From Squalus acanthias (Eukaryota): a stretch of 64,000 bases of DNA. Below, piece by piece: positions 13,770 to 63,375 of the stretch; position 1 is the stretch's first letter; each line of letters opens with the position of its first letter. A program made the position numbers and the translations under genes. Location: NCBI GenBank assembly GCA_030390025.1, contig CM059432.1, positions 34,598,001 through 34,662,000 of the forward strand. The letters run 5' to 3'. Under the pieces are notes generated by a model that worked only from the letters and a program-made list of their open reading frames with translations, was not told where the DNA came from and searched no databases.

Positions 13770-14611
13770 ACATAAGAACATAAGGAATAGGAGCAGTTGG
13801 AGGCTATATGGCACCTCGAGCCTGATCCACCATTCAATAAGATCATGGCTGATCTTCTACCTCAATTCCATTTTCCCACCCTAACCCCATATCCCTTGCT
13901 TCCCTTAGCGTCCAGATATCTATTGATCTCAGTCTTGAATATATTCAACGACTGAGGATCCACAGCCCTCTGGGGTCGAGAATTCCAAAGATTCACAACC
14001 ATCTGAGTGAAGAAATTTCTCCTCATCTGAGTCCTAAGTGGCCGACTCCTTATCCTTATTCCAGACTCTCCAGCCAGGGGAAACAGCCTCTCCGCATCTA
14101 CACTGTCAAGCCCTCTCAGAATTTTAGATGTTTCAATGAGATCACCTCTCATTCTTCTAAACTCCAGAGAGTATAGGCCCATTGTACTCAATCTCTTCTC
14201 ATAGGACAATCCCCCCATCCCAGGAATCAATCTAGTGAACCTTCGTTGCACCTCCTCCAAGGCAAGTATATTCTTCCTCAGATAAGGAGACCAAAACTGT
14301 GCACAGTACTCCAGGTGTGGTCTCACCAAAGCCCTATATAATTCCAGCAAGACTTCCTTACTCTTATACTCCAACCCCCTTGTAATAAAGGCCAACATAC
14401 CATTTGCTTTCCTAATTGCTTGCTGTACCTGCATGTTAACTTTCTGTGAGTCATGTACAAGGAACCCAAATCCCTCTGCATACCAACATTTACTAGTCTC
14501 TCACTGTTTAAAACATATTCTGCTTTTCTATTCTTCCTACCAAAGTGGATAATTTCACATTTCCCCACATTATACTCCACCTGCCACCTTCTTGCCCACT
14601 CACTTAATCTA
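13770..14611 (-). mobile_element. CR1 LINE 3' fragment
   Basis: LVRPHLEYCAQFWSP...RRMRGDLIE; ttcttatg-type tail. Confidence 0.92.
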
Positions 14612-14717
14612 TCTTTTGAAGTGTAGGCACTGTTAAAATGTAGGAAACGCAGCAGCCAATTTACGCACAGCAAGATCCCACAAACGGCAAAGAGATACGT
14701 GACCAGATAATCTATTT

Positions 14718-14756
14718 CAGTTCTGACGAAGGGTCTTCGACCTGAAACGTTAACTG
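14718..14756 (+). ncRNA. Minimal type I hammerhead ribozyme motif, family A
   Basis: CAGTT-CTGACGA-A-GGGTC ttc GACCT-GAAA-CG-TT-AACTG: core boxes, helix II, helix I, palindrome AACGTT. Confidence 0.8.
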
Positions 14757-16173
14757 TGTTTCTCTCTCCACGGGTGTTGCCTGGCCTGCTGAGTTTTTCC
14801 AGCGCTTTCTGTTGTTATTTCAGTTTTCCAGCATCCGCAGTATTTTGCTATTGTATCTATTTTTGTGATGTTGGTTGAGGGATAAATATTGGCCAGGATA
14901 CTGTGGCGAACTCCGCTGCTCTTCTCTGAATAATGCCATGGGATCTTTTACGTCCACATATGAGCTCAAGTCTCTAGGGTGGGACTTGAACCCACAACCT
15001 TCTGACTCTGAGGCGAGAGTGCGACTAACTGAGCCACGGCTGACACAGTTGGTTGAGCAATTGGGTCTCTGCAGAGCAAAGTAAGGCCCTGTGCGACCGA
15101 CAGCCCACTGCAAAAGGAAAAGGGGAAGCACAACACGTGGAGTTTGGTTCTCATTAGACAGGAACAGTAAAAAAAAACGGTCAACAAAAAAGCCCACAGG
15201 GCTGTCAGCCACTCCCGCCCTCACAGAAACAATCAAGTAGTGTGAAAACAGCAGGCCAGTGGCCTATCTGTTACCATGGTGATAGAGATGTTGCCCACAG
15301 AAGAGGGTTTGTTCTGTTGCTTTCTTGATGGTCAATTTTGATTCAGTCATTAATCCTGCTCCAAGCTCTGTCTGTAGGATTAGTACAAACGGCAGACAAC
15401 TGTGATCTTATTAAAGGAGCCTCCCAAGCAGATAAACCAGCCACATATCAGGTAATCAATGTCAACAGGGTGTTAGTCAAAGCTAATCTTGTCAGTTTGA
15501 AGGATTCCAGTCAGTAATAGGGAACGGAACATTCTTTCTGATTTTTCACTTGGGATTAGCATCAAACAGCCCCAGGTCAGGTACAGAGTGGGTTCAGAAT
15601 AAAACTCCTTCTACGCTGTCCCATCAGACACTTCCAGGTCATCTAGGGCATGGGTTAGATGCAGAGTAAAGCTTCTTCTGCACGGCCCCATCGATGTACC
15701 CCAACTAACAGTGCCTTCTAGCCCAGTTCTGGAACCGGTTGCCTGCCCTGGTTTTTGAAATGAAAATGCATCTTTTGCTACTTATTTCTGTATCTTATGA
15801 TGTGGTGCATTCGTTATGAAAGTGAAATCCCCAGCAACAATTGCCAGTCACCCTCTTTGCAGAAATCTTTTTAATGCTGGCAATTTATATTGGAAGATTA
15901 GTTTTAAGTTCCAAGATGCAATCCTTTTTTGCTTTGCCACTATTGTATCTCCTGCAGCTGCTCTCCCAACCCCTGGTTCTCCCATTCGCTCTCCAAGTTC
16001 TGCACTGCCCCATCCCCTGGTTCTTATATCCCAACTTCTGCTGCCCCATCTCAACCTCTGCTGCCCTAACACATCTCTTGCCATCCCATCTATCACAAAC
16101 TACCCTAATTCCATACCCAGCTTCCCATACCATCCTCAGCTTCCCATATCTCATCTCTGCTGTCCCTATACCA

Positions 16174-16436
16174 TGATGTGGAGATGCCGGCGTTGGACTG
16201 GGGTGGACAAAAATGAGAAGTCGCACAACACCAGGTTATAGTCCCAACAGATTTATTTAATTTTACAAGCTTTCGTAGGGAAAGATTTGAATAGATTTTG
16301 TCTGTGTTTATATTGTGAATTCTGGGAGATTCTCTCACTGCTACCCTACCTGAGGAAGGAGCGAACCGCTCCGAAAGCTTGTAAAATTAAATAAATCTGT
16401 TGGACTATAACTTGGTGTTGTGCGACTTCTCATTTT
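16174..16436. mobile_element. Penelope-like element pLTR remnant in inverted arrangement
   Basis: About 70 bp inverted arms, hammerhead motif, flanking duplication tgtccctatacca; homologous to the termini of the element at 27068-27958. Confidence 0.8.
16347..16383 (+). ncRNA. Minimal type I hammerhead ribozyme motif, family B
   Basis: TAC-CTGAGGA-A-GGAGCG aac CGCTCC-GAAA-GC-TT-GTA. Confidence 0.75.
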
Positions 16437-27067: not shown

Positions 27068-27156
27068 ATGATGCGGAGATGCCGGTGTTGGACTGGGGTG
27101 GACAAAAGTGAGAAGTTGCACAACACCAGGTTATAGTCCAACAGTTTTATTTGAAA

Positions 27157-27193
27157 TCACAAGTTTTCGGAGCGCTGCTCCTTCGTCAGGTGA
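27157..27193 (-). ncRNA. Hammerhead motif, family B (palindrome mutated)
   Basis: Reverse complement TCAC-CTGACGA-A-GGAGC agc GCTCC-GAAA-AC-TT-GTGA. Confidence 0.7.
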
Positions 27194-27213
27194 AGTATCT
27201 GTGATGACGGATC

Positions 27214-27603
27214 ATGAACACAGATACCGTCATCACACGTGAGGACACTACCCACCAGGTACATGGTACATACTCATGTGTCTCGGCCAACGTTGTCTAC
27301 CTGATACGTTGCAGGAAAGGATGCCCCAGAGCATGGTACATCGGCGAGACCATGCAGACACTGAGACAACGTATGAACGGACACCGCGCAACAATCGCCA
27401 GGCAGGATAGTTGCCTCCCAGTCGGGGAACACTTCAGCAGTCAAGGGCATTCAGCCTCGGATCTGCGGGCTAGCGTTCTCCAAGGCGGCCTTCGAGATAC
27501 ACGACAATGCAAAATCATCGAGCAGAAACTGATAGCCAAGTTCCGCACTCATGAGGACGGCCTCAATAGGGATATCGGGTTCATGTCACGCTACAGAACG
27601 TGA
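27214..27603 (+). pseudogene. GIY-YIG endonuclease domain of Penelope-like element (RT missing)
   Basis: C..ANVVYLIRC..C...YIGET...LRQRMNGHR...EQKLI.KF......GLNRD. Confidence 0.9.
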
Positions 27604-27870
27604 CTTGACATCGTTGTCTGTCTTTCCAGTTTTTAAAAAACATACACAAAAAAACAAACCCAAAATACAAACCCCAAAAAAGACGGAGAGAGAGGAAGGG
27701 ATATGGAGAGAGATCAGCTACAGACAGCAGGATTTGACACGTTGGACCCCCTGGGACACATCTCATTGTCTTGGCTGTGCTCTTGGTGTGTCTTTGATGT
27801 AAGGAAAGATTGTATCTCTGTAGTATCTGTGTTTATATTGTGAACTTTTGTAGATTCACTCAGTTTAACT

Positions 27871-27910
27871 TTACCTGAAGAAGGGGCAGGATAGCTCCGA
27901 AAGCTTGTAA
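27871..27910 (+). ncRNA. Hammerhead motif, family B, in 3' pLTR
   Basis: TTAC-CTGAAGA-A-GGGGC aggata GCTCC-GAAA-GC-TT-GTAA. Confidence 0.75.
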
Positions 27911-28038
27911 TTTTAAATAAATCTGTTGGACTATAACCTGGTGTTGTGCGACTTCTCATATAATAGATGCTGAAGGTGCTAGTCATAACATTCAATGTGT
28001 ATCTGCTCTGGGAGTGTTTGATTGGATAGTGTAGAGGG

Positions 28039-31000
28039 TGTGATATCTTGGGGACACAGCATATATATACAACAGCGCAACATGGCTTCTGGTAAGAACT
28101 GTACTGTACATGGCTTTATTATATACATCAGTAGTCCATCAGATGGCTCTATTACACTTCTCCTCCTTATTGAAGGAGTTAATCATAGCAAATAATCATT
28201 GTACATGACCTGCATGGTATATACAACTCTTGGTATATATTTCTCAAATGGAACCCATTTTATGTTTTCAAATTCTACTATAGAATTCTGTAACACAAAC
28301 AAAAGATATAAGCTTAGTTTCCATATTAGTCAGAGTATGAAAGGCTTAGAGGGTGCGGAATTCTTAAAGTGCATCCAGGAAAGCTTTTTGAGCCAGCATG
28401 TAGAAAGTCCTACAAGAGAGGGGGCGGTACTGGACCTAATTCTAGGGAATGTAGCCGGGCAAGTAGTAGAAGTGTTAGTAGGAGAGCATTTTGGTGACAG
28501 TGACCATAATTCGGTGAGATTTAAGGTAGTCATGGAAAAGGACAAAGGTGGACCGGAGATAAAGGTTCTAAATTGGGGGAAGGCCGATTTTAATATGATA
28601 AGGCAGGATCTGGCCAAAGTGGACTGGGATCAGCTACTTGTAGGAAAATCCACATCAGAGCAGTGGGAGTCTTTCAGAAAGGAAATAGGGAGAGTACAAC
28701 GCCAATATGTCCCCGTAAAGGTCAAGGGTGGGACCAACAAGCTCAGGGAACCCTGGATGTCAAAGGATATACAAGAATGGATTAGGAAAAAAAGGGAGGC
28801 TTTTGGCAGATACAAAGGACTAAAAACAATGGAAGCTCTAGAGGAATATAGAAAGTGCAGGGGGGTACTTAAAAAAGAAATTAGGAGAGCAAAGAGGGAG
28901 CATGAAATAACACTGGCGGGCAAAATAAAGGAAAATCCCAAGGTGTTTTATAAGTATATTAAGGGCAAGAGGATAACCAGGGAAAGAGTAGGGCCCATTA
29001 GAGACCAAAGTGACAATCTGTGTGTAGAGCCAGAAGATGTAGGTGGGGTTTTAAATGAATATTTTACATCTGTGTTCACTATGGAGAAGGACGATGTAGG
29101 CATAGAAATCAGGCAGGGGGATTGTGATATACTTGAACAAATTAGTATTGAGAGGGAGGAGGTAGTAACAGTTTTAGCAGGCTTAAAAGTGGATAAATCC
29201 CCAGGCCCAGACGAGATGTAACACAGGCTGCTGTGTGAGGCAAGGGAGGAGATTGCAGGGGTTCTGACACAAATTTTCAGAACCTCTCTGGCCACAGGGG
29301 AGGTGCCAGAGGACTGGAGAACAGCTAACGTAGTACCATTATTCAAGAAGGGTAGTAGGGATAAACCAGGGAATTATAGGCCAGTGAGTCTAACATCAGT
29401 GGGAGGGAAATTATTGGAAAAATTTCTGAGGGACAGAATTAGTCTCCACTTGGAGAGGCAAGGATTAATCATGGATAGTCAGCATGGCTTTGTCAGGGGG
29501 AGATCATGTCTGACCAATTTGATTGAATTTTTTGAGGGGGTGATTAGGTGTGTAGATGAGGGTAGTGCAGTTGATGTGGTCTACATGGACTTCAGTAAGG
29601 CTTTTGACAAAGTCCCGCATGGGAGACTGGTCAAGAAGGTAAAAGCCCATGGGATCCAGGGCAACTTGGCACATTGGATCCAAAATTGGCTTAGTGGCAG
29701 GAGGCAGAGGGTGATGGTTGAAGGTTGTTTTTGTGACTGGAAGCCTGTGTCCAGTGGTGTACCGCAGGGATTGGTGCTGGGTCCTTTGCTGTTTGTAGTG
29801 TACATTAATGATTTAGATATGAATGTAGGAGGTATGATCAGTAAGTTTGCAGATGACACGAAAATTGGTGGGGTGGTAAATAGCGAGGAGGGAAGCCTCA
29901 GGCTACAGGATGATATAGATGGGTTGGTCAGATGGGCAGAACAGTGGCAAATGGAATTTAACCCTGAAAAGTGTGAGGTGATGCATTTTGGGAGGACTAA
30001 CAAGGCAAGGGAATACACAATGGATGGTAGGACCCTAGGAAGGACAGAGGATCAGAGGGACCTTGGCGTGCATGTACATAGATCCCTGAAGGTAGCAGGA
30101 CAGGTAGATAAGGTGGTTAAGAAGGCATATGGGATACTTGCCTTCATTAGCCGAGGCATAGAATATAAGAGCAGGGAGGTTATGATGGAGCTGTACAAAA
30201 CGCTAGTTAGGCCACAGCTGGAATACTGTGTGCAGTTCTGGTCACCACACTATAGGAAGGATGTGATTGCATTGGAGAGGGTGCAGAGGAGATTCACCAG
30301 GATGTTACCTGGGCTGCAGCGCTTCAGCTATGAAGAGAGACTGGACAGGCTGGGGTTGTTTTCCTTAGAGCAGAGAAGGCTGAGGGGGGACCTGATTGAG
30401 GTGTACAGAATTATGAGGGGCATAGATAGGGTAGATAGAAAGGAACTTTTCCCCTTAGTAGAGGGGTCAATAACCAGGGGGCATAGTTTCAAGGTAAGGG
30501 GCAGGAGGTTTAGAGGGGATTTGAGGAAAAACTTTTTCACCCAGAGGGTGGTTGGAATCTGGAACTCACTGCCTGAAAGGGTGGTAGAGGCAGGAACCCT
30601 CACAACATTCAAGAAGCATTTAGATGAGCACTTGAAACGCCATAGCATACAAGGCTACGGACCAAGTGCTGGAAAATGGGATTTAAATAGACAGGGCTTG
30701 ATGGCCGGCGTGGACACGATGGGCCGAAGGGCCTCTTTCTGTGCTGTATAACTCTATGGCTCTATCTATGACTCTATTTACAGCTTAAACTTAACCACTG
30801 GTTTTCTGTTTTGAAGAGGATAACTTCTTTCGTGAACAGAACTTTCAGATCTTGTTGTAGGACTTTGACTCATTCTTGGCTGAGCCTGCGGAGAATTTTT
30901 CTCCAAGGGCTAACCTTGATCTACATTTGGACTCTGTACACTATCAGACTGTTTGTCTGCCTGACTCGTGCTCAGAATTAAATTCTGTCTTTGTCTTGGA

Positions 31001-34000
31001 CTTATTTCTGATACGTCTGATGTAGGATTTGCTACAGGTACTCTACTTGTAACAAGACTATCTGACTCATCAGAATAAATTGAATCATCCCAGCTTTCAA
31101 CTCCTTCTACATCTGTAGGTAAGATATGATCAATGTGAACAAACCTAACCTTTCCATGATCAAACATCTTGACCAAATATGTGCGAGGGCCACACATCTT
31201 CACTACTCTTCCTGGTAACCACTTTAACCATTTATGGTGATGGTTCTTCACTCTAACCTTCTGGTTTAACTTCACACTTCTCTCTAACTCTACCTTTATC
31301 ATGACTCTCTGCCTCGATTGTTTCTCTTCTACGGATTGTGCCAAGTTTGGCTTTAACAAAGAGAACCTGGTTCAAGGCTGTCGTTTGAGAAACAACTCTG
31401 CTGGTTTTCTACCAGTGGTGGTATGAGAAAATTTGCCAGTTTGTGGTCCAACGACAACTAACGTTTCTTTGGATTTGGATCCAACATTTGTTTGATGAGG
31501 GCATGTTTGACAATTTGTACTGTGCGCTCTGCTGCACCATTTGAAGCAGGGTGGTACGGTGGAACTTTGGTATGTTTCACACCATTTCTGCTCATGAACT
31601 GTGTGAACTCTTCTGAACAAAATTGCAGCCCATTATCAGACACAATTTCTTCTGGGAGGCCGTATGAAGAAAACAATCTTCGCAAATTGTCTAGTGTTTT
31701 GCTTGTTGTTATTATCCACATCGGAAACACCTCTACCCACTTTGAGTGACTATCTATCACTATGAACAATTGCTGTCCTTCTAGGAAATTCTACATGTAA
31801 CCTTTGCCACACTCTGGGAGGCCATTTCCATGGCTGTAATGGTACTGATGGTGGTTTCTTGCTCACCGATTGACATGTTGTATACTGACTGACTATGTAC
31901 TCTATATTTTTATCTAAACCTGGCCACCATAAGTAACTGTGTGCAAAGCTCTTGGTCAAGCACATGCTGGTCATGAAGAGCTCCTAACAATTTAGACCTG
32001 AACCTATTTGGGATAACCACTCTTGCTCCCCACATGATACAATCTTTATCCACTGACAATTCATTCCTACAAATGAAGTATGGATGGATATCTTCCTCTG
32101 ATACCTGGTTTGGCCTTCCATTTGCTATGTAATCATACACCTTTGACATCATTGGGTCACGTTTGGTTGCCCTACCAATCTCTTCAGCTGTGACTGGCAC
32201 CTCATCAATGTATGAGAAATAGAACACTTTTTCCTTAGTGGGTGATGGGGATTGCAACCTGGACATAGCATCAGCATTACTGTGATCAGCTGATTGTCTG
32301 TACTCAATGTCATACGTGTACGCTGACAACATCAAAGCCCATCTCTGCATTCGGGCTGCAGCTAAGGTTGGAACTGGGGACTTTGGATGGAGGATTGCTG
32401 TTAGGGGCTTATGGTCAGTATCTATGGTAATCTTACCACCAAACAAGTATTTGTGAAACTTCTTGACCCCAAAAATCAATGACAAAGCTTCCCTTTCAAT
32501 CTGTGCATAATTCCACTCAATGGCACTGAGAGTGCATGAAGCAAAAGCAATTGGTCTCTCCTCCCCACTATCTAGTACATGGGAGATCACTGCCCCAACT
32601 CCGTACGGAGAGGCGTCACACGCTAGCTTGATCTCCTTAGATACACCATAGTGAACTAACATGGTACTCTCTACTAACTGGCTTTTACACTCTTTGAGTG
32701 CTGTGACGCATTCTTTTGACCACTTGCAAGGGACCTGTTTTCTCAACAGCTCATTCAGTGGATGTAACAATGTAGCCAAGTTTGGGAGGAACTTTCCGTA
32801 ATAATTCAAAAGATCCAAAAATGATCGAAGTTCAGAGACATTCTTGGGAGTGGGTGCATTTCTGATTGCATCCAGCTTTCCCTTGGTTTGATGTAAACCA
32901 TCTTTGTCTACTCTGTGCCCTAAGTACTCCACTGAGTTTTGAAACAACTCACACTTGTGAGCAGTCACTCGTAGTCCGTGCTTCTCTAGCCATTTGAGCA
33001 CTTCATTCAACACCTTATCATGGATTTGCCTGTTTGGTGCTGAAATGATTATGTCATCCAAATAACACACTACCCCTTCAATCCCTTGCAAAATTTGGTT
33101 CATCATTCCTGGAATATGCCGGGGGCAGAAGGCACTCCAATAGCCTATTGAACTGATATAGGCCTCGGTGAGTATTTAGAGTCAAGCATGTCTTGGACTC
33201 TTCATCTAACTCAAGTTGTAGGTTGGCGTTTGATAGATCTAACTTCGAAAAGATCTGGCATTGTGAACAAATCTTTCACATTTGGCAACGTATTGGGTAG
33301 ATTACACTCTAGAACCTGGTTTACGGTTACCTTATAATCACCACACAACCTTACCTTACCATCTGACTTAGGTACAACAACAATGGGTGTAGCCCAATTA
33401 CTCAGATCTACCTTAGAGATAATGTTCTCAGTTTTTAGTCTTTTGAGTTCTTGCTCAACTTTCTCCTTGAGTGCGTATGGTACAGGATGTGGCTTGCAGT
33501 AAACTGGTCTTGTGTCCTTCTGCACTCTGACACTCGCCTTGAAGTCTTGGATCAGACTGCCCGTTACACTGAACACCTTTGGATACTGCTTGATGACATC
33601 ATCTTTCGATGCAAATTTCGCTTCCACACGAAAAATCTCATTCCAATCCAACTTCAGTGATCCAACCAATTTCTACCTATCAAGGCAGGCGTGTCTCCTG
33701 CCACTACTATGACAGGCAAGCTCTGACACTGATCCTTGTATTTCACTGGTATGGTGACACTTCCTACTACAGGGATTTGCTCTCCTAAGTAGCCTCGCAG
33801 CTCTACTTTCGACTTCTCTATTCGATAATCATGCAACTTGTCGCGATATAGCGATTCCGGTACTACACTCACGGATGCACCAGTGTCGATTTCCATGGGT
33901 ATCCTGGTTCCTGCGACATCTACTTGGATGATGATACCTCACGAATCGCTGTTATATATCTTCATGCTCCTGATGACGTGAATCTCCAGAAACTCCTCGT

Positions 34001-35030
34001 CCTGCTGCTTCTCTTCAACAGTATCTAGTGTCTGGTGATTTCTACTTCTAGCATTGCCAGTCAGTTTACTCTTCTGTCGGCACGCCTTCGCAAGATGCCC
34101 AGTTTCCTTGCCTTCACATATGGACAACTTTGAGTGATGTGTTGTCCCAGGCACTGATAGCACGACTCAATGTATTGTTACCTTGGCCAGTTGCTGAGGC
34201 CTTGGGGCCTAACTGCCTTTTACTTTTAGCCTGCAGCCAATTCACCTCAGTTGTCTGACGACTGGAAATGGCGCGGAACTCTCGGGAGTATCAGTCGGCC
34301 ATATCCATCGACATAGCTGTCGGACAAGCTAAGTCAAAAGTCAAGTTAGGGGTTGTCAACAATTTACTTCTGATACGTTCATTTTTCAACCCACAAACAA
34401 AGCGGTCACGCAAAGCTCGGTCCTGAAAGTTTCCGTAATGACAGTGAATGGATAGCTTTTTTAAAGCTTCAATGTACTCACTGATACTCTCATAATTTAA
34501 TTGATCACATGTTCCAAAACGATAACTTTCAGTAATTTCCAGGGGCTCAGGACTGTAGTGCTGTTCTAACTTGGTTAGGATCTCCTTCAGTGGTGTGCCC
34601 TTCGGCTTGGCGGGAACAAGCACATTTTTCAGGGTTTCATACACCTCGGGGCCTGCTTCAGTCAAAAAATAGCCAGTTTCATTTCTAAAACCGCCCGGTT
34701 ACGGTTTACATCATCGGGGACTTCGACGATACTATTCGCGGTGGAAAACATTTCTAGCCGCTCCCCATACGCTCCAAAAGTCCCTCGGTCATGATAGAAC
34801 TCACCCACGTGCCCTATTATTCCCATAGGCGCGGCCATCTGGACTCTGGCAACATCGGCAGTTCAGCCACGTGTGCGTGAAATTTACCACGGATTTTTAA
34901 GTTTTTCTGCAAAACAAAGAACCTCTAACAGTCCCTCCGTCGGTTGGCAGGATTATCCTCCAGCAAAAATTTCAGCTAGGAATCTGCAATCGCATCCTCA
35001 TCGCCAATTCTGTGATATCTTGGGACACTG
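28039..35030 (-). mobile_element. Decayed Ty3/Gypsy LTR retrotransposon
   Basis: gag from 34838, protease DTGAS, RT YLDD, RNase H DAS, integrase (SDNG, NGAAER) in PR-RT-RH-IN order, pol stop near 30778; PBS TGGCGATGAGGAT at 34994-35006; PPT 28157-28168; short 3' LTR 28039-28156 (TG..CA, AATAAA); many frameshifts. Confidence 0.93.
28326..30776 (+). mobile_element. CR1 LINE, 5'-truncated ORF2 (end of APE + RT), nested in the Gypsy element
   Basis: LDLIL..SDH, then RT motifs; ORFs 28199-29221 and 29303-30751 share one frame with a single stop; ctat-type tail. Confidence 0.95.
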
Positions 35031-35164: not shown

Positions 35165-36585
35165 TCATAGAATCATAGAATGGTTACAGCACAGAAGGAG
35201 GCCATTCGGCCCGTCGAGCCTGTGCCGGCTCTCTACCAAAGCACTTCAGCTAGTCCCACTCCCCCGCCCTTTCCCCGCAACCCTGCAAATTTTTTTCCTT
35301 CAGGTACTTATCCAATTCCCTTTTGAAAGCCACAATTGAGTCTGCCTCCACCACCCTCTCAGGCAGTGCATTCCAGATCCTAGCCACTCGCTGCGTAAAA
35401 AAGTTTTTCCTCATGTCGCCTTTGGTTCTTTTGTCAATCACCTTAAATTTGTATCCTCTGGTTCTCGACCCTTCCGCCAATGGGAACAGTTTCTCTCTAT
35501 CTACTCTGTTTAGACCCCTCATGATTTTGAACAACTCTATCAAATCTCCTCTCAACCTTCTCTACTCTAAGGAGAACAACCCCAACTTCTCCAGTCTATC
35601 CACGTAACTGAAGTCCCTCATCCCCGAAACCATTTTTGTAAATCTTTTCTGCACCCTCTCTAAGGCCTTCATATCCTTCCTAAAGTGCATTGCCCAGAAT
35701 TGAACAGAAAGGTTAATCATAACTTCCTTGCTTTTGTACTCTATGCCTCTATTTATGAAACCCAGGATCCCGTATGCTTTTTTAACCGCTTTCTCAACCT
35801 GCCCTACCACCTTCAACAATTTGTGCACATATACCCCCAGGCCTCTCTGTTCCTGCACCCCCTTTAGAATTGTACCCTTTAGTTTATATTTCCTCTCCTT
35901 GTTCTTCCTACCAAAATGTAGGAAGAACTTCGCACTTTTCTGCGTTAAGTTTCATCTGCCACTTGTCCGCCCATTCCACCAGCCTGTCTATGTCCTCTTG
36001 AAGTCTATCACTATCCTCTTCACTGTTCACTATACTTCCAAGTTTTGTGTCATCTGCAAATTTTGAAATTGTGCCCTGTACACCCAAGTCCAAGTCATTA
36101 ATATATATCCAGAAAAGCAGTGGTCCTAATACCGACCCTAGGGAACACCACTGTACACCTTCCTCCAGTCCGAAAAACAACCGTGCACCACTACTCTCTC
36201 TTTCCTGTTACTTAGCTAATTTCATATCCATGCTGCCACTGTTCCTTTTATTCCATGGGCTTCAACTTTGCTGGCAAGCCTATTATGTGGCACTTTATCA
36301 AACGCCTTTTGGAAGTCCATGTACACCACATCAACCGCATTGCCCTCATCAACCCTCTCGGTTACCTCATCAAAAAATTCAATCAAGTTAGTTAAACACG
36401 AGATAACAACAGAAAACGCTGGAAAAACTCAGCAGGCGAGGCAGCATCCGTGGAGAGAGAAACAGAGTTAACGTTTCAGGTCAAAGACCTTTCATCAGAA
36501 CTGTTAAACACGATTTGCCTTTAACAAATCTGTGCTGGCTTTCCTTAATTAATCCAAACTTGTCCAAGTGACTGTTAATTTTGCA
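35165..36585 (-). mobile_element. CR1 LINE RT to 3' end, interrupted by a 101-bp ribozyme insert
   Basis: SKFADDTKL, MRGDLIE; tctatgat-type tail. Confidence 0.92.
36466..36502 (-). ncRNA. Hammerhead motif, family A
   Basis: Reverse complement AGTT-CTGATGA-A-AGGTC ttt GACCT-GAAA-CG-TT-AACT. Confidence 0.8.
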
Positions 36586-37229: not shown

Positions 37230-37392
37230 AGGGAATGTTTGATGGGCAGTGTAGGGGGACCTTTACTCTGTACCTAACCCGTGCTATACCTACCCTGGGA
37301 GTGTTTGCTGGGACAATGCAGACGGAGATTTACTCTGTATCTAACCTGTGCTGTACCTACCCTGGGAGCTTTTGCTGGGACAATGCAGAGGG
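37230..37392 (+). repeat. About 2.4 dispersed units of the 67-bp satellite
   Basis: Matches the unit of 59232-60360. Confidence 0.8.
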
Positions 37393-39134
37393 AGTCAATG
37401 GAAATAAAAATCGTGAGAGATGTAAAACAGGCTGCCGACTCGCTATCACCCATTTTACGCTATCACACAAAGTCAAGAGCTACCCCATGTCTCCATGTTT
37501 AAAGCCCAAGTGATTCTTCTCATTAACATATAACATAAAAAATAGTTCTAACTGATGTTTATGTTTTTTGCTATGGGTGTTAACCCAGGTTATTTTAACC
37601 TGGTTATTTTAACCTGGTTAACCCCGCGCTAACAAAACACACAGAGAAATTTAGTCCGAGCACGTTCAGTATTCATATGAGAACAGCATTGATTGGAAGA
37701 CATCCCCCATATTTGGAAAAGGAGTCGTTCGCTGCTGAGACTGCTCGATGAATCCTCTGCGGAATTCATGCTCGAGCTTCAGCTGCTTGATTAAGAATGT
37801 TTCTATGAATAATTAATTAAAAATTAATAAATCACTGTGAACAGCTGCATCTGAAGCTTCCAGGTTTTAAAACATTGTAGCTGTCTCTCTCTTGCTGAAG
37901 TTCAGTTGCTCTGTGTTCTATTTTTATCTCGCAGGTCGACACCTTTATATTACATTCCTGTCTGCACTATTTTGTCATGGTCGTTAATCTGTCTATATTA
38001 AGCACACAGAGGAAATGAAGCCCCTTTGGTGTCTGGGAGGTGTAAGAGAAACCAAAGTGAAACACAACAGGCACTTCAACATGCTGTTCTCCCTGGCTTT
38101 GGTGCTACAATGATCTCTGTATGCCTGACACTAGTTTGAAGCTGTGCGGTCTCACAACACGCATTACATTTGCTGAGGCTGGGTCGATGCGAACTGTATA
38201 GTTCAATTTGGGTGTGAAGTCACCAGAAACATGTCTAGCCAAAAAATAGCATAAGACCACTTCCAGGAGGGGTTTGCACCTGCACCAGAATACCGGCTGC
38301 CCACTGTGAAGCCGTGTTTAAAAAGCTCTCGGTCAGTAGTATAGGAATTCTGAGAAATGGGGAAACTAGGGCATGATTCTGGTATGGGGGAAGCAGAATA
38401 CACTGGGTTTCCATACAGACACACACAAAAATACGTGTCTGTATATGTATATTTGTGTATCTGTATATTTGGCTGCTGATATATGCGCCTGTATTTTTGT
38501 GCGTGTCTGTATTTTTGTGCGTGTCTGTATTTTTGCGTGTGTCTGTATATCTGCATGCCTGTAAATGTGCCTGTATACTTGTGTGCCAGTCTGTATATGC
38601 GCGTGCCTGTATGTCTCTACTTTTCCAATTATTATTCAGATTATTTGGCTGTCTTTGTTTCTCTGCTCCAATTACTAAAATGGGAAGAATCAAATAATTT
38701 CAAACCCTCCTCCCTAGGGCCAGATAAATGGCATCTCTATAAAAGAACTGGACATTTATCAAACCTGGCACGTTGAGGCCAAGGCCCTGAAAGTAGGCCA
38801 GACACCTTCATGTGATCTATAGAGAGCTGACAATGAGGGACGGGTTCGTGGACCCAGATCCCCTCCCCATTAATCACTGGAAGCCGCAGTGTCTACGGAA
38901 CTAAATCATTCTTCGGAAAGGCAGGGAGCAAATCTGAGGGCTTTTAAGGAGTGTATCGGAAATGCAGAATACTGAAACAGTGACGGGGACTTGGTGCTGC
39001 TCTATCTGCAGACAGTGACTATATTTTTCAGACGTAAAATCAGGTCAACCCTTTAAAAGGGAAATGAATTCAATTGCATGTCCCCTTAACAGCAGTGATG
39101 TAAAGAGAGATCTGCATATACTAACTTCAGGTCT

Positions 39135-44099: not shown

Positions 44100-45664
44100 C
44101 TGAAATACATTTTTAAATGGTACATAGATATTAAAGCGTGGTCAATTAATTAACATACCTGTAACAAGGAGTACCATCACCACATAGACTGCAGCAGTTC
44201 AAGAAGAAGGCCCACCACCACCTTCTCAAGGGCAACTAGGGCTGGGCAATAAATGCCAGCCTTGCCAGCATTGCCCACATGTCAAGACTGAATTTTAAAA
44301 AGCATGCAAATGTTGGAAATTGGAAATAAAAACAGAAATTGCTGAAAGTAATCACCAAAAGAACAAAAGGAGAGGTTAGGAGAAATATTTTTAGGCAGTG
44401 GGTTGTTAGGACATGGAATGTCTGACCAGAAAATCTGGGGGATGCAGAATCAGGATTTTAAAGGGAAACGGATAAATATTTGAAAAAGAAAAATTTTAAA
44501 GGTTATGGAGAGAGGGTAGGGGAATGGAACTGAGTGGAGAGTTCTTTCAGAAAGCTGATACAGACACAATGGGCTGAATGGCCTCCTTCTGTGCTGTTAA
44601 ATTCTACGATTTTATGAAATAGACAGCGGTTTAGTCAGCAGCTGTAAGAAGGAAAGACAGGCTAAATGATGATTGTGGTGTGTACCCTGCACCAGAATAA
44701 AGGCTGAAAAGGAAGATGAAAATCATTTTATTAAGATTGTAAAAAATAAAGAGGAAAAATGAGGAAGGGGAGAGAATCGACAGAGACTCCAATCACAGGC
44801 AGGGAGTTAAGGGGTTGAATGATCTGTAATCTGCTTATTAGAAGACCATTAGATGATATGAAAGATTGTCAGTGAGACAAGGGAAATACAGAAAAAAGGA
44901 AAAATAGTCAAGAGGGTGAAACAACAGAAAGGTGAGAAAGAACCAGAGGGGAGATGAGGAGAATTTATTTTACGGAAGCTAATTATTATGATCTGAAATT
45001 CACTGCCTGAAAGGGTCATGGAAGCAGTTTCAATAGTAGCTTTCAAAAGGGAATTGGATCTATACTTGAAAGGAAAAAATTGCAGGGCTAAGGGATAGAG
45101 CAGGGAAGTGGGACTAATTGGATAGCTCTTTCAAAGAGCCGACACAGGCACGATGGGCTGAATGGTCATCTTCTGTGCTGTATGATTCTATGCTTCTATG
45201 AAATGGGGGATTGGGAGTTGGAAAAACCCTGCAAGTGCAGCACAGAAAATGCTGGGACAACAGAGTGGGGTTGATTTTCCTGTTGCCCCTGTGCCTGGGC
45301 AGTACTCGGGCAGAGCAGCGTCCAAAGAAAATAGCGGCCAGAAGGATTTCACTGCTGACCCCTATCCTGTGGACCCTGGAAGGACAAAGATCTTTGCTGT
45401 GATCTTTGCTGCCTTCCTCTCTCCGATCAGAGCATCGGATGATCCTTCTTGATAGGGGGAGGGATTCAGGGCCTCTTTGGGGTCAAGGCTGGTCCAGGAT
45501 GATGTGGCTGGTGATGAAGGCCTGGGTTCCTTCTGCAGCTGACTTAGTAACCCTGTGCCTTGAGCTAGGCAGGATCTTATTACTGATTGACCAAGCAGCC
45601 TCATTCACTAATGGAACATGGAGGGGTAGCTCTCTCATTGCTTGTTCTCTCTCGACTCCAGATA

Positions 45665-58475: not shown

Positions 58476-58512
58476 TCACCTGACGAAGGAGCAGCGCTCC
58501 GAAAGCTTGTGA
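58476..58512 (+). ncRNA. Hammerhead motif, family B
   Basis: TCAC-CTGACGA-A-GGAGC agc GCTCC-GAAA-GC-TT-GTGA. Confidence 0.8.
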
Positions 58513-58560
58513 TTTCAAATAAAGCTGTTGGACTATAACCTGGTGTTGTGCGACTTCTCA
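58476..58560 (+). mobile_element. Solo Penelope-like pLTR fragment
   Basis: Matches the pLTRs at 16.3 and 27 kb through cgacttctca. Confidence 0.8.
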
Positions 58561-59231
58561 CATCCTGGTAGTGGCGTGATACAATGATAATGGTGTTGTT
58601 GACTAATCACAGCAATCAATCTCTTTCAATTAGTCTACAGCAGACCCAAATATCACGAGGAAAACCACCAGGAGTGGAGAGCTTTGGGAACCATAGGTCC
58701 AAAGTCACCTGTTCCTCCCAAGCATGCTACACTTTATGACATCTCTGAGAAATGTCCCAAAGTGTTTCACATAGAATAATTTACTTTCAAATACTGGGGT
58801 GAGGAAGACACTATACAATTCTGGGGACAGAAAGTGGAGTCCAAGGTGAAGCATTTGTACCAACCAGATCACTTCCTTTAATCCTTTTCTTATGCTCTTA
58901 CAAAACGTAACATGTAACGAGACAGCGTGAAATGAGAAATGTCCATTGGGCCCACCAGCCTACTTCCTCCAATTCCGGAGATGCTTGAGTGAAAGGTTAA
59001 TCCCCAAGGTTGAAAAGAGTAGGCGGGAGGATGAGGCAGATCAGCAAGTGGTGATTAAAGGGGAAGTGGATCAGTACTTGAAAAGGAAAAATTTAAAAGG
59101 ATACTGGAAAATGGCAGGGAAATGGGATTTGAGTGTGTCAGCTCTAGCTGAAAAACTAGCACTGACACAGGCGCAATAGGCCAAATAGACTGCTTCTGTG
59201 CTGTAATTTCAGTGATTCTTTGATTGAGCAT

Positions 59232-60360
59232 TGTAGAGGGAGCTTTACTCTGTATCTATCCTGTGCTGTACCTGCCCTGGGAGTGTTTGATGGGACAGTG
59301 TAGAGGGAGCTTTACTCTGTATCTATCCTGTGCTGTACCTGCCCTGGGAGTGTTTGATGGGACAGTGTAGAAGGAGCTTTACTCTGTATCTAACCCGTGC
59401 TGTACATGGCCTGGGAGTGTTTGATGGGACAGTGTAGAGGGAGCTTTACTCTGTATCTAACCCGTGCTGTACATGGCCTGGGAGTGTTTGATGGAGCAGT
59501 GTAGAGGGAGCTTTACTCTGTATCTAACCCATGCTGTACATGGCCTGGGAGTGTTTGATGGGACAGTGTAGAAGGAGCTTTACTCTGTATCTAACCCGTG
59601 CTGTACCTGCCCCGGGAGTGTTTGATGGGGCAGTGTAGAGGGAGCTTTACTCTGTATCTAACCCGTGCTGTACATGGCCTGGGAGTGTTTGATGGAGCAG
59701 TGTAGAGGGAGCTTTACTCTGTATCTAACCCGTGCTGTACCTGCCCTGGGAGTGTTTGATGGGACAGTGTAGAGGGAGCTTTACTCTGTATCTAACCCGT
59801 GCTGTACATGGCCTGGGAGTGTTTGATGGAGCAGTGTAGAGGGAGCTTTACTCTGTATCTAACCCGTGCTGTACATGGCCTGGGAGTGTTTGATGGGACA
59901 GTGTAGAAGGAGCTTTACTCTGTATCTAACCCGTGCTGTACCTGCCCCGGGAGTGTTTGATGGGGCAGTGTAGAGGGAGCTTTACTCTGTATCTAACCCG
60001 TGCTGTACATGGCCTGGGAGTGTTTGATGGAGCAGTGTAGAGGGAGCTTTACTCTGTATCTAACCCGTGCTGTACCTGCCCTGGGAGTGTTTGATGGGGC
60101 AGTGTAGAAGGAGCTTTACTCTGTATCTATCCAGTGCTGTACATGGCCTGGGAGTGTTTGATGGGACAGTGTAGAGGGAGCTTTACTCTGTATCTATCCT
60201 GTGCTGTACATGGCCTGGAAGTGTTTGATGGGGCAGTGTAGAGGGAGCTTTACTCTGTATCTATCCTGTGCTGTACATGGCCTGGAAGTGTTTGATGGGG
60301 CAGTGTAGAGGGAGCTTTACTCTGTATCTATCCTGTGCTGTACATGGCCTGGGAGTGTTT
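59232..60360. repeat. 67-bp tandem satellite, about 17 units
   Basis: Unit tgtagagggagctttactctgtatctaacccgtgctgtacctgccctgggagtgtttgatgggacag; constant period 67. Confidence 0.97.
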
Positions 60361-60467
60361 GGCGCTGACATGAGGTGCAAAAAAGCGTTCAGTTTGCCAT
60401 TAAAGACGTCCTATCCATCTTGCGAGATACCCCCAAATATTTTTAAAGATAGAAGGAGGGGTCTTAC

Positions 60468-61800: not shown

Positions 61801-62645
61801 TAGGGCAGGCATGTCAGCTTTGGGATGTCCTGATGTCATGAAAGACACTAAATAAATGCAAGTTCTTTCTTTCTATTGGTGAAATCAAGCCCGGAGGTGA
61901 GAAGACTGAAGATATGGGTTTTGGCAGTGATATGGGTGATGTGCAGTGGGGAGTGAACGGTCTACATACATATTGGGAGTTTGATATAGCCATATGTTGC
62001 TTCTCATTGATCGGAGGCACCATGGGTTTAAATTGTAATCCCAAGAACGTGCAATGCCATTCCATCAGCAAAATGCTCATTCCAACAGTGTTTAACGCTG
62101 TCAGATTTCAGGTAATTTGCATACTGTTACCGGGCGCCCATGTGCTGCTGGTAGGGCAGGGGCAGAGCCCCTTTATGAGAAAACTGATTCCCAACCTTGA
62201 CTCTTGTCTTTCACAGGGGCTTTTTTTTGTTGTTGAGTGTTTCAGGCCATTGCTACTACTTTGTATAGCTAATGTAGATGTAGTTGTAGATGTACAAGCC
62301 ATTGTACTGGCCTGAGCAGCTCTTGTGGGCCCCTTCTGAGTTACTGAGATGCATCTCACAGTAGGAGGAACCAGAGGCAGGAGTAGCTATCCCACCAGTA
62401 CTGCCTCCGCTTCTGACTTCAGCCTGTGAGGGGGAGCGGCACAATAGCTGTGTACCCGACCTCCCCACAGGAAATCCCAGCGATAGGTTTAATGGGGCAG
62501 AGACCTGGCATAACCAGGCCCCGCCTCAAGACTCCTCCCGCCTTGATGATTTGGGGCTTGTTTGAGTTGCTGCTTGAGAGCTGTACTTGTCCTTGTTATA
62601 TATTTCCCAACCTCTTGCTGTTCCCAGCTTCTGGTTTGGCCCTAC

Positions 62646-62816
62646 CTTTCTGCTGGTGTAGTGGGCGTGTTTGCCCAGCTTGGAGTTCATGGTGTCCACC
62701 AGTATAGTGTCTGTCACCTTCCCGACGTTCATACAGGCTTCATCCAGGATAGCGATGATTCCTTTGTGTGGCTGTTCGACCAGATCCACGATGATTTGAT
62801 TGTTGAAGTAGTCAAT
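62646..62816 (-). CDS. MYO1G: Myosin I exon, motor: [57 protein letters not shown]
   Basis: 171 bp, phase 0/0, acceptor ttgcccag, donor AAG/gtagg. Confidence 0.95.
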
Positions 62817-62959
62817 CTGGGCAATGAAAAGGCAGAAAGGAAAGAAGCTTTCAGTAGTCAGACATGAACCGCTCCGTCTTTGGGACACTTGTGTAATGCT
62901 AATCCATGGAGCTAAGCCGGACATAGTAGAAGGGAGGAAGTGCAGTGGAAAGTCTTTGG

Positions 62960-63375
62960 GAGATTATTAGAGAAGATTAAGGAGTATGGAATTATGGGGC
63001 GGTTAGAAAATTGGATTAGAAATTGGTTAGAAGGGAGAAAACAAAAGTAGAAGTTAAGGGCAGTTTTTCCAGAGTAGCTCAAAATGGGTAATGGTGTTCA
63101 CAGGGATCAGTACTGGGACTACTTCTGTACACTCTGTATGTCAATGATTTGGATATAAGCCTAAAGGGGGGGTGTTGAAATTTGGAGATGATACCAAAAT
63201 AGGAGGTATATTTAATTCTTTAGAACACCAAAAGAAACTGCTAAGGGAAATTAATAAGATGGGAGGATGGGCTAAAATGTGGCAGATGGAATTCAATATT
63301 AGTAAGTGTGAGGGTAAATACCGACACGGACTGATTGGGCCAAAATGGCATGTTTTCACTTTGTAATTTCTATGT
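62960..63375 (+). mobile_element. Old CR1 RT fragment
   Basis: KFGDDTKIGG, WQMEFNISKC. Confidence 0.75.

Follow-up and report, generated by a model that had tools for sequence, protein, structure and literature searches.

A hammerhead-bearing 137-bp insert in Squalus acanthias DNA as the probable truncated end of a Penelope-like element

The insert at 14718-14854 of the 64,000-nucleotide stretch of Squalus acanthias DNA analysed here (the window; contig CM059432.1, positions 34,598,001 to 34,662,000) is very probably a heavily 5'-truncated terminal repeat of a Penelope-like element (PLE), placed there by target-primed reverse transcription of an uncleaved RNA. The insert is genuine, behaves like an end piece of an EN+ PLE left by truncation, and is largely ordinary except for the position at which its copies begin. 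The features needed for the argument are the following.

14610-15050, minus strand: host repeat, multi-copy in the window, SINE-like, limits approximate
14710-14717, plus strand: left TSD copy, 8 bp, 7/8 A/T, supported by empty paralogues
14718-14854, plus strand: insert copy 1, long form, 137 bp, composed of a hammerhead, a spacer and a tail, and interpreted as the pLTR end (terminal module) of a PLE
14855-14862, plus strand: right TSD copy, 8 bp
14718-14756, plus strand: minimal type I hammerhead motif with a predicted cut after 14751 (descriptor scan; consensus from PMC4209133 Fig. S3)
14718-14722 with 14752-14756, plus strand: helix I, 5 bp
14723-14729, plus strand: hammerhead core
14731-14735 with 14739-14743, plus strand: helix II, 5 bp
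14744-14747, plus strand: GAAA
14746-14751, plus strand: 6-nt palindrome replacing helix III
14820-14854, plus strand: 35-nt optional 3' extension (PLE 'tail'), absent from copy 2; contigs end at 14819-14822 and 14848-14852
36402-36502, minus strand: copy 2, short form, 101 bp, tailless, in ORF2 of a CR1-type LINE
36391-36401 and 36503-36513, no strand assigned: 11-bp TSD of copy 2

The stretch 14718-14854 is confirmed as an insertion with an 8-bp TSD into a SINE-like repeat. The 8-bp repeats on its two sides are exact, and with random boundaries placed 137 bp apart and tandem arrays excluded a repeat of at least 8 bp arose in 1 of 6000 trials, or in 8 of 6000 when a slack of ±2 nt was allowed, the whole-window chance with arrays included and a slack of ±4 being 3.6%. 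Furthermore, the host repeat is restored once the insert and one 8-bp copy are deleted, since all of the four closest paralogues, which were tested out of eight candidates aligned, can be aligned through the junction, where no gap exceeds 2 nt. An earlier, sequence-only reading of this DNA had described a TSD-flanked insert opening with the 5' strand of helix I, and on both counts it was right, 14718-14722 pairing with 14752-14756 as listed. The host repeat has a tRNA-like head near 14990-15050 when read by eye, and ARAGORN calls no tRNA within 14610-15050. Free-energy folding of the insert is no better than that of shuffles (z -1.1). The window itself is repeat-rich vertebrate DNA and includes CR1-type LINE fragments. 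Broken ORFs of a Gypsy-like LTR retroelement were read from translations at 30900-34700 (minus strand), satellite DNA is represented by a 67-bp unit repeated about 20 times, with related pieces dispersed (59080-60450, 37243-37394 and 15572-15692), and an exon at 62526-62960 (minus strand) matches the myosin head domain (Pfam PF00063, E 4.5e-11), and much of the window may therefore be intronic.

The homology to 36402-36502 that had been pointed out before likewise holds, as 92 of 101 positions are identical. Copy 2 interrupts the ORF2 of a CR1-type element of which both paralogues tested (2/2) are empty, and its 11-bp TSD is 7/11 A/T. Both copies are solo, as truncated copies of PLEs often are, tandem arrangements being absent from the locus and the rest of the window, and since both carry TSDs they are to be regarded as direct insertions. 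Their 5' edge is common within 1 nt (2/2 window copies), copy 1 starting 5 nt and copy 2 4 nt before C3 of the hammerhead, with the fifth base shared with the TSD of copy 2, whereas their 3' ends lie 132 and 97 nt beyond C3, a difference of 35 nt, and neither carries a poly(A) or simple-repeat tail. Both copies furthermore span the predicted cut site, and the RNA template must therefore have been uncleaved or rejoined. A possible third, decayed piece at 44310-44347 (minus strand) consists of a 38-bp match to the 3' part of the insert (79%, E 0.001) and has no hammerhead.

The hammerhead has one unpaired base between core and helix II, and only 2 nt separate GAAA and U16.1. It fits the published consensus of minimal hammerheads (min-HHR) except at the 10.1-11.1 pair, described as a highly conserved G-C, where copy 1 has G-U and copy 2 has A-U. 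The descriptor scan detects four minimal motifs in the real window, whereas 60 shuffled versions yield none; at the locus Rfam gives no hammerhead among its eight matches with E of at most 1, all of which are weak and unrelated. When helices I and II of six window motifs are compared, 55 of 58 cells are paired and two-sided changes occur in 8 of 10 pairs, whereas pairing in slid controls does not exceed 42%; only two families contribute to these figures, and the structure was derived from the very sequences compared. It thus appears that helices I and II are maintained by compensatory changes between the two families. Minimal hammerheads require a second copy to fold helix III and cleave poorly in vitro, and because a single hammerhead needs such a partner, the insert copy is most likely inert and self-cleavage by a solo copy would be unlikely. 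In run X21 (see below) the loose end before 14757 comprises three reads from another organism, which have the same downstream sequence after a hammerhead-like head whose helix II is different yet complementary, a hint of a related family with compensatory changes.

All or part of the stretch is present in 20 listed public runs from 9 studies, none of which is on record as an RNA run, X6 being only guessed to be one. Four runs were compared over 14630-14940, flanks included, of which X1 (about 55% of the run) gave 29,348 contigs, X6 4,044 contigs, X21 22 reads and X22 none; contigs as such cannot reveal RNA ends. Before 14718 there are loose ends in 280 contigs of X1 (agreement 0.51) and 41 of X6 (0.66), with a nearly identical 30-letter consensus in the two runs. 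A mixture would account for this, in which some copies run on into a shared upstream sequence while others begin at this point amid unrelated flanks; its proportions are not quantifiable because on this reference every longer copy must break at 14718. The contigs that break there partly have one upstream continuation in common, which makes it probable that a longer element ends with the insert; the continuation is known only as that 30-letter consensus of modest agreement. One contig of 1388 nt matches 14718-14820 exactly and has other sequence on both sides. Other copies seem to start inside the hammerhead region, since six contigs break at 14732, and unmatched sequence precedes two listed pieces, whose starts are at 14737 and 14759. 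At the 3' side, 26 contigs have loose ends behind 14856 that are mixed and AT-rich (agreement 0.40), and 6 of the 16 contig pieces listed (33,854 others exist, and the orientation of two minus-strand records is assumed) end with at least 20 unmatched letters beyond, three at 14819-14822 and three at 14848-14852, the latter class being one that the reference could partly force. No place is listed in the runs over 14630-14940 where many molecules begin or end. The loose-end consensus before 14718 also resembles a branch point, a pyrimidine tract and a YAG acceptor at 14718-14720, and by eye two further acceptor-like stretches occur inside the insert near 14772 and 14823.

No RT or GIY-YIG ORF tied to the insert family was seen in the window, as had been claimed before, and the assignment to PLEs therefore rests on four non-coding hallmarks, namely the min-HHR, the tail, the TSD and the upstream continuation. 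Indeed, the insert carries a minimal type I hammerhead of the kind found in PLE terminal repeats, an optional tail within the 30-40 bp range, given by the 35 nt between copies 1 and 2, and short TSDs of variable length (8 and 11 bp) at AT-rich targets. It is on these 8- and 11-bp TSDs, the minimal hammerhead, the 3' ends 35 nt apart and the upstream continuation that the earlier proposal of an extremely truncated Penelope-type unit integrated by a TSD-forming mechanism can be retained. The open sense frame across the insert is just 45 codons long, and the idea that it is the N-terminus of a PLE ORF, as in the PAc element discussed below, received no support from any of 185 candidates. Searching 1.84 billion representative proteins with this frame gave seven hits, none with RT or GIY-YIG; three are ORFs of 71-76 aa resembling other short copies, which are biased against upstream-extended copies and hence not counted as evidence on 5' ends, and four are unrelated repetitive proteins. 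The antisense frame gave one hit among 52 candidates, a Heterodontus francisci gene model in which a copy is read as an exon; this shows the family to be present in a shark and is uninformative on ends. DNA pattern scans of viral contigs, metagenome contigs and prokaryote genomes, where a shark repeat is not expected, returned 0 loci, and none of the 79 pattern hits of a peptide scan of viral contigs was confirmed.

A second, unrelated hammerhead family at 16350, 27189 (minus strand), 27875 and 58480 serves as an internal control. It is to this family that the sole GIY-YIG-like ORF found in the window belongs, located at 27208-27603 upstream of one of its copies, with a Pfam E of 3e-4 just under the curated cut-off and matches to GIY-YIG clusters at 0.96 in the ESM Atlas; tblastn of the window with this ORF revealed no second GIY-YIG ORF. 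The region of about 27070-27960 comprises an inverted terminal piece, the ORF, a 3' UTR and the hammerhead, and no clear TSD was found around it. At 16174-16436 a fold-back insertion of the same family has a 13-bp TSD and a 37-nt tail that is present in the inverted arm only and missing from the direct arm, an arrangement typical of PLEs. With its two-end geometry and its GIY-YIG ORF, a PLE-type family in the same window thus shows the same anatomy, which by analogy supports the PLE class of the insert and provides no link for the insert family itself. At 58480 and 27189 the homology sets in about 4-7 nt ahead of C3, whereas the copies at 16350 and 27875 extend further. The short copy at 58476-58563, the homology of which starts at about that edge, has no TSD of at least 6 bp at its ends, and no empty paralogue was found for its left flank.

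If the truncated-end reading is correct, a PLE RT/GIY-YIG protein encoded elsewhere would act in trans and nick AT-rich DNA in a staggered fashion, as the biochemistry of PLEs suggests (PMC11167929). Reverse transcription would then be primed internally, about 97 or 132 nt downstream of the hammerhead C3 depending on which of two start sites is used, and a cDNA of about 100 or 135 nt would be copied through the uncleaved hammerhead and stop at the 5' edge of helix I, after which the short cDNA would be joined to the target and gap filling would yield the 8- or 11-bp TSD. The stop may reflect an RNA template that begins at the helix I edge by way of a promoter or processing, but it could alternatively be caused by the U-rich tract just upstream acting as a truncation hot spot by slipping, or by a splice-acceptor-like boundary. 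The edge does fit the initiator-like pattern YYANWYY, to which 1% of positions conform by chance, and the Penelope of D. virilis has an internal promoter within its pLTR. An intron of the D. virilis element ends at helix I; an origin of the edge as a splice product was nonetheless set aside and is kept only as a minor possibility, because the copies begin 2-3 nt before the would-be exon. The earlier note had named as fatal to its proposal that all copies might be random truncations of one ordinary long element, and this finds partial agreement in the data: the existence of longer copies and of some starts inside the hammerhead conforms to it, while the 5' edge shared by the two window copies does not. 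The shared edge is indeed more orderly than random truncation predicts and as such counts against the reading as a truncated PLE. On the same side stand the lack of a linked RT or GIY-YIG ORF, the modest agreement of the upstream consensus, the altered 10.1-11.1 pair and a fold no better than that of shuffles.

The notion that the insert is instead a non-autonomous mini-element, a unit of 101-137 nt that came from a PLE terminal repeat but would now have transcription of its own, starting at the helix I edge of its copies, and would rely on the PLE protein in trans for re-insertion, stems from this same edge, its YYANWYY fit and the 1388-nt contig with foreign sequence on both sides, and it should also be mentioned that non-autonomous PLE derivatives are known (PMC8557442). 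It is nonetheless rather improbable, given that part of the copies share an upstream continuation and others seem to start inside the hammerhead, that the runs list no accumulation of molecule ends and that no promoter has been demonstrated. Furthermore, the two 3' end classes need a template reaching past the short end, and short copies therefore cannot give rise to long ones. A monomer of a non-LTR retrozyme, copied from a small RNA that hammerheads cut and circularise and that stems from tandem arrays elsewhere in the genome, is a highly improbable source. The insert does combine a type I hammerhead with the lack of an ORF and a TSD of more than 4 bp (PMC7229834), and tandem retrozymes related to PLE pLTRs have been reported, including in one chondrichthyan genome (bioRxiv 10.64898/2026.07.22.740005). 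However, head-to-tail hammerhead units are found neither at the locus nor in the window, the motif is minimal and not the canonical type I with helix III of the 2020 definition, and the unit is shorter than the 150-450 bp given for retrozymes (PMC7229834). In addition, the loose-end consensus behind the 3' end is unlike that before the 5' end, none of the 15 listed joints (141 others exist) goes back, and the two copies, which share a 5' edge yet measure 137 and 101 bp, are not permuted forms of a single unit-length circle, nor do their ends lie at the cut site, so neither copy corresponds to one circle unit. The retrozyme-like membership that the sequence-only reading had offered as one option is accordingly not upheld, the copies being solo, their motif minimal and without helix III, and their ends off the cut site.

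Least of all do we favour the terminal piece of a retroelement of another class, such as a LINE, a SINE or a tyrosine-recombinase element, with a minimal hammerhead present by chance, which we consider extremely improbable. No coding partner is linked to the insert, and variable-length TSDs are common to all target-primed elements and would fit any of them. Against this, a poly(A) or simple-repeat tail is missing at both 3' ends, and the two-end tail geometry has been described as unique to PLEs. Insertions of tyrosine-recombinase elements are generally free of TSDs, in poor agreement with the TSD of the insert, and our literature search found no paper on DIRS or Ngaro elements with hammerheads.

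Some animal genomes contain thousands of single min-HHR copies (PMC4209133), and the literature already documents their origin from truncated PLEs as well as tails and 8-10-bp TSDs, which leaves the 5' edge at helix I shared by both copies (2/2) as the remaining point of interest. The stub matters only if this edge is a fixed boundary. Published work calls both the regeneration of PLE terminal repeats and the role of the hammerhead unclear, and short copies of this kind, flanked by TSDs and combining a single 5' edge with two classes of 3' end, would allow the termini of the first cDNA to be read off directly from genome sequence. We tentatively suggest, as a possibility that we consider doubtful, that the template RNA of the PLE really begins at the 5' edge of helix I, by a transcription start or a processing point and not by chance truncation, and that internally primed reverse transcription would yield a fixed product of 100 or 135 nt, comparable to the strong-stop DNA of LTR elements, which would normally jump to the far end of the RNA to build a full pLTR-flanked copy and otherwise integrate alone as a TSD-flanked stub. 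If this were true, the stubs would constitute a fossil record of a missing step in the regeneration of PLE pLTRs.

Our search of the literature, which included few subscription papers, found neither this shark family nor any clustering of 5' ends at helix I described, although the supplements of the preprint covering one chondrichthyan genome may list the family. The part of the motif table of PMC4209133 that was covered contains no shark motif, one of its supplements has neither 'shark' nor 'Callorhinchus', and in the available part of that paper there is no description of copies starting at helix I. The min-HHRs of metazoan PLE pLTRs and of dispersed single copies described there are nonetheless much like that of the insert, being of type I with a helix I of 4-5 bp and no helix III, and sharing the one unpaired base before helix II, a palindrome at 15.2-16.2 and a U-rich upstream flank, and most of the motifs are single and ascribed to truncated PLEs. 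The insert differs from them in having G-U or A-U in place of G10.1-C11.1, of which A-U occurs in the published table too (PMC4209133). Non-LTR retrozymes of animals (PMC7229834; bioRxiv 10.64898/2026.07.22.740005) are likewise ORF-less, of type I, flanked by TSDs exceeding 4 bp and related to PLE pLTRs, but they are defined by tandem units (with canonical motifs in PMC7229834) and circular RNA, whereas the copies of the insert are solo, minimal and not cut-to-cut. The preprint also admits minimal motifs as retrozyme hammerheads, and it reports most PLE insertions to be 5'-truncated with one terminal repeat kept (bioRxiv 10.64898/2026.07.22.740005).

The PLEs of Adineta vaga (PMC3846280) resemble the insert in their TSDs of 8-10 bp, an optional tail of 31 bp and the existence of solo pLTRs, and mobilisation in trans through pLTR sequences has been described for them. 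Their solo pLTRs are however without TSDs and are ascribed to recombination or deletion, whereas both copies of the insert have TSDs. Closest in its 3' geometry is the Poseidon PLE PAc of Anolis carolinensis (PMC11167929), in which two internal start sites of reverse transcription give rise to an optional tail of 30-40 bp, as in the 35-nt end difference seen here, and which shares the AT-rich targets. PAc is full length with an ORF starting in the hammerhead, whereas here only the terminal module is present, with a 45-codon frame that matches no PLE protein. The main template of PAc in vitro is uncleaved RNA, and the inserted cDNA, having been made across the hammerhead cut site, is consistent with that result.
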